A DNA stretch of 64,000 bases, taken from the sequence record PV173775; one strand, 5' to 3'. Of this stretch, positions 2,866 to 27,661 are shown one piece after another. Position 1 is the stretch's first letter, and each line of letters opens with the position of its first letter. Under the pieces are notes generated by a model, which was given only the letters and a program-made list of their open reading frames with translations, was not told the DNA's origin and ran no database searches. Made by a program: the position numbers and the translations under genes. The DNA is from Escherichia phage GEP001.

Positions 2866-3068
2866 GCCAAACTAGTATTCTTAAAAATGCCCATTGTGAA
2901 AAGTGTAAATGGCCAGTTGTTTTTGCTTTATGCAATGATGAAATGGCTTGTGATTTCGATTATTGGTGCTATTGCTCTAATAAAGGATGCATCAATCATA
3001 AAGGCGAAGGATTTTATTCGGGATTTTATCCTTATCCCGATTTCATTAAAGAAGGTAAACCAAAATGA
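2862..3068 (+). CDS. Cys-rich small protein (68 aa), possible zinc binding
   Basis: ATGA start/stop overlap with upstream gene; AAAGG SD 9 nt upstream; multiple Cys pairs. Confidence 0.5.
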   Translation: MSQTSILKNAHCEKCKWPVVFALCNDEMACDFDYWCYCSNKGCINHKGEGFYSGFYPYPDFIKEGKPK

Positions 3069-3238
3069 ATAATTTTGAGTTACAATATGAAGTGTTACGT
3101 GAACTTGATAATTTAATTGAACTCGCTGTTAATAAAGGTTTTGCCATTGGAATTGGTCAAAAAGATACTGATCATTTAACTATGGAAATATTTAAGCAAA
3201 AACGAATTATTTTAAAACTTCTGGAAATTAATATATGA
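3065..3238 (+). CDS. hypothetical small protein (57 aa)
   Basis: ATGA overlaps at both ends link it to flanking genes; below 60 aa so absent from ORF track. Confidence 0.4.
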   Translation: MNNFELQYEVLRELDNLIELAVNKGFAIGIGQKDTDHLTMEIFKQKRIILKLLEINI

Positions 3239-3420
3239 GTCTGAGCAAAGAACAAAAAGATAAATTGTTTGAGCTTATCCATGAACTTCTAGATGAGCAT
3301 ACAGAAGCAAACACCTTTTATGATGAATACGGCCCGCTATCTCCCGATCAGCAAGAAGAATTTGCTGATCGGTTTGATAAGAAAGAAAATGAATTAATAG
3401 CTTATGTGAATACGCTTTAA
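3235..3420 (+). CDS. hypothetical acidic protein (61 aa)
   Basis: ATGA overlap with upstream ORF; directly precedes tk. Confidence 0.5.
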   Translation: MSLSKEQKDKLFELIHELLDEHTEANTFYDEYGPLSPDQQEEFADRFDKKENELIAYVNTL

Positions 3421-3429
3421 GAAGGTGAT

Positions 3430-4011
3430 ATGGCGAGTTTAATTTTTACTTATGCAGCAATGAATGCTGGAAAATCTGCTTCTCTTTTGACTGCTGCGCA
3501 TAATTATAAAGAACGCGGAATGGGTGTATTAGTTCTTAAGCCTGCTATTGATACTCGCGATTCTGTTTGTGAAGTCGTTTCTCGCATTGGAATTAAGCAG
3601 GAAGCGAATATTATTACGGATGATATGGATATTTTTGAGTTCTATAAATGGGCTGAAGCACAAAAAGATATTCATTGTGTATTTGTAGATGAAGCACAGT
3701 TTTTAAAAACTGAACAGGTGCATCAATTAAGCCGAATTGTCGATACATATAATGTTCCTGTTATGGCTTATGGACTAAGGACTGATTTCGCTGGAAAATT
3801 ATTTGAAGGTTCTAAAGAACTTTTGGCTATTGCAGATAAACTTATTGAACTGAAGGCAGTTTGTCATTGCGGTAAAAAAGCGATTATGACAGCTCGATTA
3901 ATGGAAGATGGAACACCAGTTAAAGAAGGTAATCAAATCTGTATTGGTGATGAAATTTATGTTTCTTTGTGTAGAAAACATTGGAATGAATTAACTAAAA
4001 AGCTCGGTTAG
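3430..4011 (+). CDS. tk: thymidine kinase
   Basis: 193 aa; P-loop NAGKSAS; C-terminal CHCG...C zinc motif typical of type II thymidine kinases; matches T4 Tk. Confidence 0.95.
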   Translation: MASLIFTYAAMNAGKSASLLTAAHNYKERGMGVLVLKPAIDTRDSVCEVVSRIGIKQEANIITDDMDIFEFYKWAEAQKDIHCVFVDEAQFLKTEQVHQLSRIVDTYNVPVMAYGLRTDFAGKLFEGSKELLAIADKLIELKAVCHCGKKAIMTARLMEDGTPVKEGNQICIGDEIYVSLCRKHWNELTKKLG

Positions 4012-4053
4012 TGCAAAAGTTATAAATAGGTTTATCTAACTAAAGGGGTATAT

Positions 4054-4266
4054 ATGCTACAATTAACTGAAAAGCAACTTCGCAATCTTACTGTGCTTCA
4101 ATTAGATGAAATTCGTAGGGAAGTTGGAAATATCATTTCAGCTTTGCGTCGAGAAGTATCGCTCAACCAATCTCCGGCAGACTATACTAGATTGCGAAAT
4201 TTTGAAAAATACCTTGATAAAGTTAAGGCCGTGCACCGGCATAAAGTAAATACAGGACAAAAATGA
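4054..4266 (+). CDS. hypothetical protein (70 aa)
   Basis: ATG after AAAGGGG SD; between tk and rI. Confidence 0.55.
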
Positions 4267-23974: not shown

Positions 23975-24148
23975 ATGAACACCCAGACTTCTGAAATAGA
24001 TTATAATAAAATTCGTTCCTCTAAAGTAGAAATGATGAGACGCTTTAAAGAGGCTCACGATAAAGCTAAAGCAGAAGGAACTATAACATATAAGCGCATA
24101 AAATTTAGAAGCTCTAACGAGCCTCTGTATGGTGTATTATGCGGATAG
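23975..24148 (+). CDS. hypothetical small protein (57 aa)
   Basis: ATG 3 nt after upstream stop; ends in a hairpin; not in ORF track. Confidence 0.35.
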   Translation: MNTQTSEIDYNKIRSSKVEMMRRFKEAHDKAKAEGTITYKRIKFRSSNEPLYGVLCG

Positions 24149-24164
24149 GAGCTTCGGCTCCTAT
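24145..24164 (+). terminator. UUCG hairpin, possible terminator/RNA stability element
   Basis: ATAGGAGC TTCG GCTCCTAT; weak T tail. Confidence 0.4.
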
Positions 24165-24190
24165 ATTGCTTTATAAATTTTTGGTAAAAT
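24164..24190 (+). promoter_or_regulatory. candidate middle promoter upstream of a-gt
   Basis: TGCTTTA 24167-24173, 11 nt, TAAAAT 24185-24190. Confidence 0.5.
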
Positions 24191-24214
24191 AAACCAAAAC
24201 AATGAGGATATTAA

Positions 24215-25417
24215 ATGAAAGTATGCATTTTTATGGCTCGAGGTCTTGAAGGTTGTGGTGTAACTAAATTTTCTCTTGAGCAACGTGATTGGTTTATTAA
24301 AAATGGTCATGAAGTAACTTTGGTTTATGCTAAAGATAAATCATTTACTCGTAATTGCGCGCATGATTATAAATCATTTTCAATTCCGGTTTTATTGGCA
24401 AAAGAATACGATAAAACACTTAAGCTGGTAAATGATTGTGATATTCTAGTTATCAATTCAGTTCCTGCTACTTCAGTCGAAGAAGACACTATTAATAACT
24501 ATAAAAAAATTATTGATAACATTAAACCTTCGGTTCGTGTTGTAGTTTATCAGCATGACCATTCTTCTCTTTCTTTGCGCCGAAATTTGGGATTAGAAGA
24601 AACTGTTCGTCGAGCTGATGTTATTTTTAGTCATTCTGATAATGGCGATTTTAATAAAGTTTTGATGAAAGAATGGTATCCGGAAACTGTTTCTCTGTTT
24701 GATGATATTGAAGAAGCACCGACTGTATATAACTTTCAGCCTCCTATGGATATTGCGAAGGTTCGATCAACCTACTGGAAAGATGTTTCTGAAATTAACA
24801 TGAATATCAACCGTTGGATTGGTCGTACTACTACATGGAAAGGCTTTTATCAGATGTTTGATTTTCACGAAAAACATCTTAAACCTGCAGGACTAAGTAC
24901 TATTATGGAAGGTCTGGAACGTTCTCCAGCATTCATTCCTATTAAAGAAAAAGGAATTCCATACGAGTATTATCGTCTTCATCAAGTAGACCAAATTAAA
25001 ATTGCTCCTAATTTGCCAACGCAAATTCTCGACCGTTATGTAAATAGCGAAATGCTTGAACGCATGAGTAAATCCGGATTTGGTTATCAGTTGAGTAAAT
25101 TAGATAAAAAATATTTACAACGTTCTTTAGAATATACTCATCTCGAGCTTGGTGCATGTGGAACAATTCCAGTATTTTGGAAATCTACTGGTGAAAATTT
25201 AAAATTCCGTGTTGATAACACTCCGTTAATTTCTCATGATAGCGGTATCGTTTGGTTTGATGAAAATGACATGGAATCAACATTTGAACGTATTAAAGAA
25301 CTGTCATCTGACCGAGCTCTTTATGACCGCGAACGTGAAAAAGCTTATGAATTTTTGTATCAGCATCAAGATTCAAGCTTCTGCTTTAAAGAACAGTTTG
25401 ACATTATTACAAAATAA
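24215..25417 (+). CDS. agt: DNA alpha-glucosyltransferase
   Basis: 400 aa; near-identical to T4 alpha-gt as recalled; GAGGA SD; MotA-box promoter upstream. Confidence 0.9.
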   Translation: MKVCIFMARGLEGCGVTKFSLEQRDWFIKNGHEVTLVYAKDKSFTRNCAHDYKSFSIPVLLAKEYDKTLKLVNDCDILVINSVPATSVEEDTINNYKKIIDNIKPSVRVVVYQHDHSSLSLRRNLGLEETVRRADVIFSHSDNGDFNKVLMKEWYPETVSLFDDIEEAPTVYNFQPPMDIAKVRSTYWKDVSEINMNINRWIGRTTTWKGFYQMFDFHEKHLKPAGLSTIMEGLERSPAFIPIKEKGIPYEYYRLHQVDQIKIAPNLPTQILDRYVNSEMLERMSKSGFGYQLSKLDKKYLQRSLEYTHLELGACGTIPVFWKSTGENLKFRVDNTPLISHDSGIVWFDENDMESTFERIKELSSDRALYDREREKAYEFLYQHQDSSFCFKEQFDIITK

Positions 25418-25433
25418 AGGGCTTCGGCCCTTT
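25416..25433 (+). terminator. UUCG hairpin after a-gt
   Basis: AAAGGGC TTCG GCCCTTT; no long U tract. Confidence 0.5.
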
Positions 25434-25456
25434 AGCTTTATACGGAGTTTGATATA

Positions 25457-25597
25457 ATGATATTTCTTGGATATGTGATACTTTTTCTAGCGTTTTATCT
25501 ATTCACTAGAGCATGTTGGATTGGGTTCTTTAGCACTCCAGATGGATTTATTTCAATAATTTTATTTTGCATTTCAATGACGGTTCTTGATATATGA
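25457..25597 (+). CDS. small hydrophobic membrane peptide (46 aa)
   Basis: GGAG SD 9 nt upstream; two hydrophobic stretches; ATGA overlap with downstream gene. Confidence 0.4.
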   Translation: MIFLGYVILFLAFYLFTRACWIGFFSTPDGFISIILFCISMTVLDI

Positions 25598-26142
25598 AAA
25601 AATATATAACTTATTTAACAATATATAGTGGAGATAAACTTCCTCCTTTTTATATTGGATCTACATCTTTAGACAGGCATTTAGCCGGATATCATGGATC
25701 AGTTTTATCTAAAAAGTATAAGAAAATTTATAATGAAGAACTTTCAAATAACCCACATTTATTTGATTCATGCATTTTAGATGAATTTGATACGCGCGAA
25801 GAAGCTATTAAATGCGAACTATATTATCAACGTTTGCATGATGCGGTTAAAAATCCATTATTCTTTAATATGTCATATGCTGCTCCAAAAGGTTCATTTG
25901 GAAGAGATATTAAAGGACAAAATCATCCATTATATGGTTCTCATAATTGTAAAGGAAACATACATTCACATGACCCATTAACAGGAAAATCTGCCTTTTT
26001 ACCGTATATTCCAGAAGGTTATGTAAAAGGAAGGTCAAATAAATTTAAAGCTTCATCACATAATAAAGGTAAAAAATGGTATAATAACGGAGTTAAGCAA
26101 ATGTTATGTCATGAACCTCCTGGTCCTGAATGGACAAAATGA
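25594..26142 (+). CDS. GIY-YIG-like nuclease domain protein (possible Seg-type homing endonuclease)
   Basis: N-terminal ...IYSG-x8-YIGST...R... resembling GIY-YIG; segments similar to I-TevI-like (DSCILDEF); 182 aa. Confidence 0.5.
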   Translation: MKKYITYLTIYSGDKLPPFYIGSTSLDRHLAGYHGSVLSKKYKKIYNEELSNNPHLFDSCILDEFDTREEAIKCELYYQRLHDAVKNPLFFNMSYAAPKGSFGRDIKGQNHPLYGSHNCKGNIHSHDPLTGKSAFLPYIPEGYVKGRSNKFKASSHNKGKKWYNNGVKQMLCHEPPGPEWTK

Positions 26143-26194
26143 AAAATTAAAGAACTAGTTTCAAAAGCAGCTAAATTAGGATGGAAAAGACACC

Positions 26195-27214
26195 ATGAAA
26201 ATACTAAACTTGGGTGATTGGCATTTAGGCGTTAAAGCTGATGATGAATGGATTCGCGGTATTCAAATTGATGGAATTAAACAAGCGATAGAATGTTCTA
26301 AGAAAAATGGAATTACTGTATGGATTCAATACGGTGATATTTTTGATGTGCGAAAAGCGATTACGCATAAAACTATGGAGTTTGCACGTGAAATAGTTCA
26401 AATGCTTGATGACGCTGGAATCACATTACATACTATTGTAGGAAATCACGATCTCCATTATAAAAATGTAATGCATCCAAATGCTTCTACTGAGCTTTTG
26501 GCTAAATATCCTAATGTTAAAGTATATGATAAGCCTACTACAGTAGATTTTGACGGATGTTTGATTGATTTAATTCCTTGGATGTGCGAAGAAAATACTG
26601 GTGAAATTCTTGAACACATCAAAACTTCATCTGCTTCTTTTTGTGTCGGTCACTGGGAGCTGAATGGATTTTATTTTTATAAAGGAATGAAATCTCACGG
26701 TCTTGAACCTGATTTCCTTAAGACTTATAAAGAGGTGTGGTCTGGTCACTTCCATACTATCTCTGAGGCTGCTAACGTCAGATATATTGGGACACCATGG
26801 ACACTAACTGCAGGTGACGAGAATGACCCTCGCGGGTTCTGGATGTTTGATACAGAAACAGAACGAATGGAATTTATTCCAAACAACACTACCTGGCATC
26901 GTCGAATTCATTATCCATTTAAGGGAAAAATTGACTATAAAGATTTTACAAATCTGTCAGTACGTGTTATAGTAACTGAGGTAGACAAAAATCTGACAAA
27001 GTTCGAATCTGAACTAGAAAAAGTTGTGCATTCATTACGAGTTGTGTCAAAGATTGATAACTCTGTCGAGTCAGATGATAGTGAAGAAGTTGAAGTTCAA
27101 TCTCTTCAGACATTGATGGAAGAATACATTAATGCAATTCCAGACATCACTGATTCTGACCGTGAAGCACTTATTCAATATGCAAATCAGTTATATGTAG
27201 AGGCAACACAATGA
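26195..27214 (+). CDS. 47: recombination endonuclease subunit gp47 (Mre11-like)
   Basis: 339 aa; phosphoesterase motifs GDWHLG, GDIFD, GNHD; matches T4 gp47. Confidence 0.9.
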   Translation: MKILNLGDWHLGVKADDEWIRGIQIDGIKQAIECSKKNGITVWIQYGDIFDVRKAITHKTMEFAREIVQMLDDAGITLHTIVGNHDLHYKNVMHPNASTELLAKYPNVKVYDKPTTVDFDGCLIDLIPWMCEENTGEILEHIKTSSASFCVGHWELNGFYFYKGMKSHGLEPDFLKTYKEVWSGHFHTISEAANVRYIGTPWTLTAGDENDPRGFWMFDTETERMEFIPNNTTWHRRIHYPFKGKIDYKDFTNLSVRVIVTEVDKNLTKFESELEKVVHSLRVVSKIDNSVESDDSEEVEVQSLQTLMEEYINAIPDITDSDREALIQYANQLYVEATQ

Positions 27215-27474
27215 CTTTTGATGAATTTAAAAATGTTATGATGAGTCAGCATTTTGAATGCGAAGTAAAAGATGATATTGGGCATAAAGAAATTATTGAA
27301 TACTGGTTTGAACCACTAGAGGTTGAAGATAATTGTATTAAAAAGGTCACGGTCTGCACTGACTGGGCTGTATCTTTTAACTTCAACATTTTAGATAATG
27401 ACACACCTAAATCATTACAAGATATGGCTGTATCTTGTATTAAGGATGCATACTGTGAAGTTTTCGACATTTGA
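27211..27474 (+). CDS. hypothetical protein (87 aa)
   Basis: ATGA overlap with gene 47. Confidence 0.5.
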   Translation: MTFDEFKNVMMSQHFECEVKDDIGHKEIIEYWFEPLEVEDNCIKKVTVCTDWAVSFNFNILDNDTPKSLQDMAVSCIKDAYCEVFDI

Positions 27475-27661
27475 CATTAATGATGAATTCATAGCAAATA
27501 TTGATTACACCGAAGAAGATTCTAGATATGTTGGAATAATTTATATCACATCAAAAGCAGCACAAGGTGTTGTTTGCATGGCTGAATTTGATGAATACTT
27601 TTTAGATTATGATGATATGATAGAATGGTCTAAAAGATACATTAAAAGGAATCTTTTGTGA
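27455..27661 (+). CDS. hypothetical protein (about 68 aa)
   Basis: GTG 27455 with AAGGA SD (alternative ATG 27446); overlaps gene 46 start. Confidence 0.4.
   Translation: MKFSTFDINDEFIANIDYTEEDSRYVGIIYITSKAAQGVVCMAEFDEYFLDYDDMIEWSKRYIKRNLL

Follow-up and report, generated by a model that had tools for sequence, protein, structure and literature searches.

A probable seg-like GIY-YIG homing endonuclease gene with a premature stop codon at the 47.1/47 junction of Escherichia phage GEP001

The interval between a-gt and gene 47 of Escherichia phage GEP001 (sequence record PV173775) raises the question of whether a nuclease-like open reading frame (ORF) found there forms a unit with the small hydrophobic ORF in front of it, and whether it still encodes an active enzyme. 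Free-standing homing endonucleases shape marker survival in T-even co-infection and create recombination boundaries in phage genomes, and the T4 Seg endonucleases (SegA, SegE, SegF and SegG) are free-standing GIY-YIG enzymes that drive intronless homing and marker exclusion. We analysed a 64,000-nt stretch of the GEP001 DNA (the window), which belongs to a Tequatrovirus genome whose closest match in the phage collection is 97.4% identical over 24 kb. By alignment to annotated T4 and its relatives the flanking genes are a-gt (24215..25417) and gene 47 (26195..27214), and between them lie two plus-strand ORFs, one hydrophobic of 46 aa (25457..25597) and one of 182 aa (25594..26142), with the stop/start overlap ATGA; an initial annotation had placed two ORFs joined by ATGA at this position, and its coordinates and overlap were borne out. 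We propose, with a probability of about 0.78, that the longer ORF is a free-standing seg-like GIY-YIG homing endonuclease gene (HEG) located at the 47.1/47 ATGA junction and acting like the T4 Seg enzymes, of which the window copy has most likely been disabled or strongly attenuated recently. The observed basis of this proposal is the fold, the motif residues, the insertion anatomy, the polymorphism between phages, purifying selection, the truncation and an association with four codons of gene 47; from it we infer, by analogy, cleavage, the target site, homing and the loss of activity in the window copy.

The nuclease reading frame and its premature stop

25594..26142, plus strand: truncated seg-like GIY-YIG homing endonuclease ORF, 182 codons and TGA (Pfam, PHROG, homologues, AlphaFold2 and Foldseek)
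25594..25878, plus strand: GIY-YIG catalytic domain, residues 1-95, with Y11, Y20, R28, Y33, G35, S39, E75 and N92

The 182-aa ORF has 170 homologues at E<=1e-3; two alignments were used, one of 37 homologues (A3) and one of the 28-sequence clade associated with gene 47 (A4). Two results of the sequence searches weigh against a GIY-YIG identity: the protein matched Pfam PF01541 (GIY-YIG) with E=7.2e-4 and 20.3 bits, under the 22.6-bit gathering cut-off, and PDB sequence searches, both single-sequence and profile, gave no GIY-YIG match. Among the 37 homologues, 13 matched Pfam GIY-YIG (E<=0.01). This sequence evidence is marginal; the basis of the assignment is the fold, along with the motif residues. 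In the AlphaFold2 model, built with the 37-sequence alignment, the N-terminal domain is predicted with a local distance difference test score (pLDDT) >90 and has the topology beta-beta-alpha-alpha-beta-alpha, with helices on either side of a three-stranded sheet. Foldseek comparison with PDB placed the I-TevI catalytic domain at the top (probability 0.99), with Slx1 (0.41) and UvrC (0.12) among the next few, and the viral-structure library BFVD returned 55 matches at E<=1e-3, the named ones being GIY-YIG, NUMOD, Seg-like or intron endonucleases. The ORF 25594..26142 is thus assigned to the GIY-YIG nucleases of the Seg/I-TevI kind, weakly by sequence and clearly by its predicted fold; the GIY-YIG-like N-terminus resembling I-TevI and Seg proteins that had been recognised initially is confirmed by the AlphaFold2 fold, Foldseek, BFVD and the motif residues.

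The motif tyrosines, in TIY11 and FY20IG, are conserved in 36 of 36 covering sequences in A3 and 27 of 27 in A4, and E75 and N92, which are aligned to I-TevI E75 and N90, are invariant in 37/37 homologues. R28, located in the short helix after the YIG strand, is K or R in 30/37 homologues in A3 and in 28/28 sequences of the close clade in A4. The arginine supplies one further point against the assignment: in a low-probability hhalign alignment I-TevI R27 falls in a 9-residue deletion and R28 is aligned elsewhere. The search for I-TevI homologues yielded 9 matches, mostly fragmentary and too few for a family profile. The GYxGS motif and the short first-helix region are common to SegA, SegF and the window protein, and since SegA and SegF are proven nucleases that share both features, the shortened arginine region is not read as evidence against activity. 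The initial annotation had proposed the catalytic Arg and Glu as the residues to look for in an alignment; the glutamate is there as the invariant E75, and Arg28 is present but could not be equated with I-TevI Arg27.

The gene family is annotated inconsistently across records as hypothetical, HNH or homing endonuclease, and the possibility that its product is an HNH endonuclease was considered and rejected. The HNH identity has the RefSeq and PHROG 10820 labels in its favour; no Pfam HNH match was found even at E<=10, and fold and motifs are those of GIY-YIG enzymes, so that this identity is almost certainly wrong. The label stands on the family in NC_054901, NC_054911, NC_054916, NC_054919, NC_054920, NC_054924, NC_054925, NC_054933, NC_055723 and phrog_10820, and is probably a propagated mis-annotation.

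25903..26139, plus strand: linker and remaining C-terminal putative DNA-binding region, residues 104-182, with GxNHPLYG, two beta-hairpins, KWYNNG and PxxW
26140..26142, plus strand: premature stop TGA at codon 183 (GGA = Gly183 in relatives), from pairwise alignment with SA20RB
26143..26217, plus strand: untranslated 3' HEG remnant, codons 184-207 (KIKELVSKAAKLGWKRHHENTKLG) and stop codon, the last 23 nt overlapping gene 47

The C-terminal motifs are conserved across the gene-47-associated clade, and the beta-hairpins are predicted at residues 123-136 and 161-172. Pfam NUMOD3 was detected in the C-terminal region of 19 of the 37 homologues, the window protein falling below threshold; when the whole family was compared with I-TevI by hhalign, only a weak NUMOD3-like stretch (I-TevI residues 168-207) was aligned, and neither a zinc finger nor a helix-turn-helix was detected in the window protein. 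Nine full-length alleles were read (SA20RB, REP1, PhiZZ23, TadeuszReichstein (Bas43), fPS-90, Killian and three metagenomic contigs), and in 9/9 the intact ORF has 207 codons (624 nt) and ends 23 nt inside gene 47. Among 10 alleles there are 21 synonymous and 8 non-synonymous variable sites; the intact alleles are, as judged from these substitutions, under purifying selection. All nine have GGA at codon 183, and Gly183 is invariant in the 28-sequence clade alignment, where it lies within the motif P-x-G-W-x-x-G. Past this glycine the clade carries either a conserved basic segment, KLxxxxSKAAxKMWxR (predicted helix), or a longer module, which in some homologues appears helix-turn-helix-like from its sequence pattern; a helix is predicted with lower confidence at residues 191-202. 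The truncation removes the terminal 25 residues and the 23-nt overlap with gene 47, and ribosomes stop 52 nt before gene 47.

A sequencing or assembly error at codon 183, the phage really having an intact 207-codon gene, would count against a disabled copy; we consider it unlikely. It is favoured by the nature of the change, a single-base G to T after an A-rich run (ACAAAA-TGA-AAAA), and by the absence of the allele from any other record: the 65-nt stretch around codon 183 had an exact match in 0/65 database records, the mismatch being traced to this base only in the sequences that were read directly. It is opposed by the change being a substitution rather than an error in homopolymer length, and by the existence of independent decay alleles of the HEG, which also makes inactivation the expected biology. 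The ORF ends at ~163 aa in ZCEC15 and ESh16 and is frameshifted at codon 4 in ERS-1. An apparent 124-nt HEG deletion in KNP1 and KNP5 (KNP5, locus L029 1250..1722) was examined as another case of decay and rejected, the deposited sequence having runs of N there.

In I-TevI the C-terminal subdomains provide binding (PMC2330249). By this analogy the truncated copy has probably lost its site-specific activity or retains it in strongly reduced form. A point on the other side is that the loss is confined to the end of the C-terminal region, so that with an intact catalytic domain and most of the putative DNA-binding region the window protein could keep activity. The initial annotation had spoken of effects on co-infection "if active": the catalytic domain is indeed intact, and the activity of this particular copy is doubtful, given that a nonsense mutation private to it strikes an invariant glycine and costs it the terminal 25 residues.

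Insertion at the 47.1/47 junction

25594..26194, plus strand: 601-bp insertion relative to T4, flanked by the 7-nt direct repeat ATGAAAA (25594..25600 and 26195..26201), from alignment of the window, T4 and SA20RB
25457..25597, plus strand: gene 47.1, resident 46-aa predicted membrane protein of T4-type phages, outside the mobile element, from alignment to T4 NP_813808.1
26195..27214, plus strand: gene 47, SbcD/Mre11-like recombination nuclease subunit and presumed target gene, from alignment to T4 gene 47

The spacing between anchors on either side of the insertion is 629 nt in HEG-bearing and 28 nt in HEG-less phages; the HEG occupies the former start position of gene 47, and an identical gene 47 start is retained 601 bp downstream. 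The whole insert is present in 65/503 flank-matching Tequatrovirus records (65-68 of about 503), or about one in eight, and is missing from T4, T2, RB14 and RB32, which upholds the earlier view of a mobile gene that differs between isolates. Homologues that share the catalytic domain only are found at other loci with other C-terminal domains, e.g. upstream of gene 39 in Bp7. A scan with the family hidden Markov model (HMM) found no second HEG copy in the window, and a scan of IMG/VR for relatives gave nothing confirmed. Judged from its sequence, the HEG is a promoter-less free-standing cassette of mobile type, and a layout of promoter-less cassettes with overlapping ORFs has been described for segC, segF, mobA and mobC (PMC2988022).

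The small upstream ORF had been described initially as a membrane peptide coupled to the nuclease, which did not hold up. It matches phrog_6693 (E=1.5e-31) and equals T4 gene 47.1 (NP_813808.1) in length, in position and in its ATGA stop/start overlap, the difference being that the ATGA leads into gene 47 in T4 and into the HEG in the window; over 25380..25600 (query positions 1-221) window and T4 agree at 99.1% identity. That 12 of the 15 variable sites among 21 phages are at third codon positions shows this ORF to be a genuine coding gene. Gene 47.1 is conserved in about 500 phages with or without the HEG, and T4, RB14, RB32 and the other HEG-less records (~435) all carry it, unchanged in sequence and with the same ATGA joining it directly to gene 47. 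Being a resident gene, coupled to gene 47 where the HEG is absent, it is no partner of the nuclease; the HEG landed on the 47.1/47 junction and took over an existing translational coupling.

Homologues in other genera lead to the same place. Dhakavirus IME08, Jiaodavirus KP185, Biquartavirus L9-6 and Mosigvirus AV109 each have a full-length relative (54-71% identity) directly in front of gene 47; these relatives overlap the gene 47 start by 1-23 nt, and the sequence that comes just before their own start codons is unrelated. That the window ORF encodes an intact, active homing endonuclease paired with a membrane peptide dedicated to it is very improbable for these reasons: although the ATGA overlap is real and the GIY-YIG domain intact, the peptide is gene 47.1, equally conserved in the ~435 HEG-less records and coupled there to gene 47, the homologues of IME08, KP185, L9-6 and AV109 have unrelated upstream sequence, and the window ORF is cut short at an invariant glycine.

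In IME08 (NC_014260, locus L006 2498..3115) the homologue, of 205 aa, is unannotated, and the annotated start of gene 47 (3021..4124) falls within the HEG, 81 nt ahead of the conserved MKILN start at locus position 3102.

The 5' end of gene 47 as candidate target

26203, 26204, 26209 and 26212, plus strand: four silent substitutions in gene 47 codons 3-6 (nt 9, 10, 15 and 18), candidate target-site immunity changes

The flanks of the insertion were compared over 1.3 kb on the left and 1.5 kb on the right in 11 HEG-bearing and 10 HEG-less genomes. No site on the left splits HEG-bearing from HEG-less phages, and on the right exactly four do, all silent and all in codons 3-6 of gene 47, which read ATA CTA AAC TTG in the window vs ATT TTA AAT TTA in HEG-less phages. 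All but one of the 68 HEG-bearing records have >=4 mismatches from a T4-type query; the exception, ERS-1 (PP337211), has T4-type codons and the HEG frameshifted at codon 4, in a record marked UNVERIFIED_ORG with several other indels, so that its oddity could be biology or poor sequence. Within the first 300 bp of gene 47, nucleotide diversity was 0.028 and 0.048 among HEG-bearing phages, pi(HEG+), and 0.066 and 0.096 among HEG-less ones, pi(HEG-), with a divergence between the two groups (dxy) of about 0.09, while the left 300 bp are undifferentiated, with ~0.022-0.025 for pi(HEG+), pi(HEG-) and dxy. The differentiation on the right fits a co-conversion tract on the gene 47 side (20 non-independent genomes).

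As a rule, the target of a free-standing HEG of T4 is the conserved gene next to it (PMC2988022, Table 1). The four HEG-linked silent sites, the ~300-bp differentiation, the position of homologues on the gene 47 start and this adjacent-gene targeting all point to the 5' end of gene 47, and we put it at about even chances that in HEG-less phages the recognition site of the enzyme is at the 47.1/47 junction or in the first gene 47 codons, the four silent changes and the insertion protecting carriers. Several observations weigh against such a target. The compared genomes are not phylogenetically independent, 21 having been read base by base, and a literature search found no cleavage, target or homing data for the window protein or its homologues. 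HEG-type codons also occur at a T4-like empty junction in about 9 of ~435 HEG-less records, namely SHFML-26 (two records; locus L028 1501..1598), BCPEco_001, BCPSen_003, Ec_YwIITB1, PBM-1, UGKSEcP1, UGKSEcP2 and EPIMAM01; these junctions could have arisen by precise loss between the ATGAAAA repeats, or could represent a pre-existing allele or a selected resistance allele. Finally, the four sites are tightly linked to the insert, and because they are only 9-18 bp away from it recombination would rarely part them from it.

This last point belongs to an explanation in which the four changes have nothing to do with immunity. They would be hitch-hiking donor DNA, the true right end of the insert being at ~nt 18 of gene 47, or would serve to encode the HEG tail, and cleavage would occur elsewhere or at a site split by the insertion. 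Such an explanation is possible, though we give it rather less than an even chance. The four changes are non-synonymous in the HEG frame (NTKLG vs NFKFR), and the empty sites with HEG-type codons may be precise deletions between the ATGAAAA repeats. The tail version is weakened by the C-terminal tails themselves, which vary freely among homologues (NENS, NENNS, NSALR and others), so that the tail seems only weakly constrained. Both versions are opposed by the differentiation, which extends ~300 bp into gene 47 with none on the left and fits a break on the gene 47 side, and by the sole HEG-bearing genome with T4-type codons having a broken HEG, although that record is UNVERIFIED and indel-rich.

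Among HEG-less phages, gene 47 nt 45-282 (26239..26476) exist as two sharply distinct haplotypes, a T4/RB14/G8 type and a RB32/slur02/Sf21 type, with a GCGGT/AATCC block at nt 62-66 among their differences; the T4 type is found in 11/11 HEG-bearing genomes.

Under the proposal of a seg-like HEG that targets gene 47, the sequence of events would be as follows. A promoter-less cassette at the ATGA junction would use upstream transcripts and inherit the coupling to 47.1. In a mixed infection the enzyme, if it acts as T4 SegA, SegE, SegF and SegG do, would cut HEG-less genomes in or beside the 5' end of gene 47, and the break would be resected and then repaired from a HEG-bearing genome. Repair would carry over the HEG and, with it, the initial few hundred bp of gene 47, resulting in localized marker exclusion, and the HEG-bearing genome would be spared because the insertion and the four silent changes in codons 3-6 alter the site. 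The change of Gly183 to TGA would then have removed the conserved C-terminal segment and uncoupled the ORF from gene 47, placing the window copy in the decay stage of the homing cycle. Gene 47, whose orthologue has Pfam Metallophos on record, itself codes for the Mre11-like nuclease by which double-strand breaks are resected in the course of homing.

The HEG might also be no longer purely selfish, and be kept for the expression of the essential gene 47, whose translation initiation region its 3' end carries in five or more genera, or as a weapon against co-infecting relatives. The gene 47 start position is conserved in Tequatrovirus, Dhakavirus, Jiaodavirus, Biquartavirus and Mosigvirus, the intact alleles are under purifying selection, and embedded host expression signals are held to favour HEG retention (T4 review, PMC2988022), all of which speak for a retained gene. 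Such a role is nevertheless quite unlikely, as ~87% of Tequatrovirus records do without the HEG and have gene 47 coupled to 47.1 instead, the window phage gets by with a stop codon 52 nt ahead of gene 47, and decayed copies exist (ZCEC15 at 163 aa, ERS-1). A more far-reaching reading, which we regard as rather unlikely, would be that one seg-like lineage has, under purifying selection, kept its fixed place at the gene 47 start across five or more genera, with the four codons as an immunity allele that also circulates alone, as a resistance allele, in ~2% of HEG-less phages, and with the HEG perhaps forming part of gene 47 translational control. If true, the locus would document every stage of the homing cycle in nature: sensitive empty, invaded, decayed (the HEG in the window) and resistant empty.

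Elements of this kind are well known; this one is uncharacterised, and dozens of genomes already carry it under loose annotations. The analysis offers a testable prediction, a target at the first gene 47 codons with a four-base natural immunity variant, for which natural intact, truncated and empty alleles exist for comparison; the BASEL-collection phage Bas43 has the intact gene. It also corrects the annotation: 47.1 is a resident gene, and the nuclease is a seg-like GIY-YIG HEG with a premature stop.

Neighbouring signals and known homing endonucleases

25415..25434, plus strand: a-gt terminator hairpin AAAGGGCUUCGGCCCUUUA with UUCG loop, read in the sequence and by RNA folding
25435..25458, plus strand: MotA-type middle-promoter-like motif GCTT-N14-TATAAT, consensus match read from the sequence

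Upstream of the ORFs, the a-gt hairpin lies at a position annotated as a terminator in the homologous regions of SA20RB, fPS-90 and G8; the terminator scan marked it on the minus strand only. The MotA-type motif, a putative promoter, corresponds in position to an annotated T4 middle promoter of SA20RB; the 47.1 ATG overlaps with its -10 hexamer, and transcripts from this promoter would begin within 47.1, without translation from that ATG. No Shine-Dalgarno sequence was read before the HEG start or the gene 47 start, no T4 late promoter (TATAAATA) was found near the HEG, and the sigma-70 promoter scan did no better than shuffles. RNA folding at the HEG start (z -0.89) and at the gene 47 start (z +0.74) was likewise no better than shuffles, and there is thus no evidence for sequestration of the ribosome-binding site at either start. 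A weak hairpin GGAG...CUCC followed by UUUUUAUAUU is located at 25630..25656, in the 5' part of the HEG coding region, and is indistinguishable from chance here; it recalls the internal weak terminators described for segF and mobE (PMC2988022).

Two other HEG sites of the region are empty in the window. T4 (locus L002 483..1277) and phage G8 carry mobB, an HNH homing endonuclease gene, between a-gt.2 and a-gt, and in the window (23975..25417) an a-gt.2-like ORF (23975..24148) is directly followed by a-gt, leaving this second variable site unoccupied; the lack of mobB also shows that the window phage is distinct from T4. In PhiZZ23, SHFML-11 and SHFML-26 a gene annotated as a homing endonuclease separates 46.1 from 46 (L008 3879..4021, L020 3278..3421 and L028 3009..3098), and gene 46 of the window comes directly after a 46.1-like ORF (27398..27661 / 27658), which makes a third presence/absence HEG site within ~4 kb.

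A literature search found no paper that names or tests the 47.1/47 HEG, and its place among homing endonucleases is given here by comparison. Structurally, the predicted nuclease domain of the window protein is closest to I-TevI, the endonuclease of the td intron (PDB 1LN0/1MK0). It differs from I-TevI in that it is not intron-encoded, shares only ~19% identity in the domain, and has a shortened version of the first helix that carries R27 in I-TevI.

With the T4 Seg proteins the window HEG shares several features: a free-standing ORF between conserved genes, in the orientation of its neighbours, with no promoter of its own and overlapping the neighbouring ORFs; an N-terminal GIY-YIG domain in which GYxGS and a short first helix are found; behind it, at the C-terminus, a putative DNA-binding region; and presence or absence among close relatives. 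In T4 the pairs of seg gene and target are segA/uvsX, segE/uvsW, segF/56 and segG/32 (PMC2988022), and the adjacent conserved gene is likewise the presumed target here. The window HEG differs in being at the 47.1/47 locus, in having a C-terminal region without a Pfam match, and in being a truncated copy. The family HMM gave E=0.01 with SegA and E=0.49 with SegF, I-TevI and I-TevII being likewise insignificant, and by these scores the window HEG is no orthologue of SegA or SegF, the T4 Seg proteins that were scored.

Close relatives are the uncharacterised gene-47-associated homologues (e.g. Bas43 bas43_0175, SA20RB_057, KP185 UNY41130, L9-6 APU01849 and the IME08 ORF), which belong to the same family (54-99% identity) and occupy the same gene 47 start position; they are full-length proteins of 202-267 aa, whereas the window copy ends at 182 aa.

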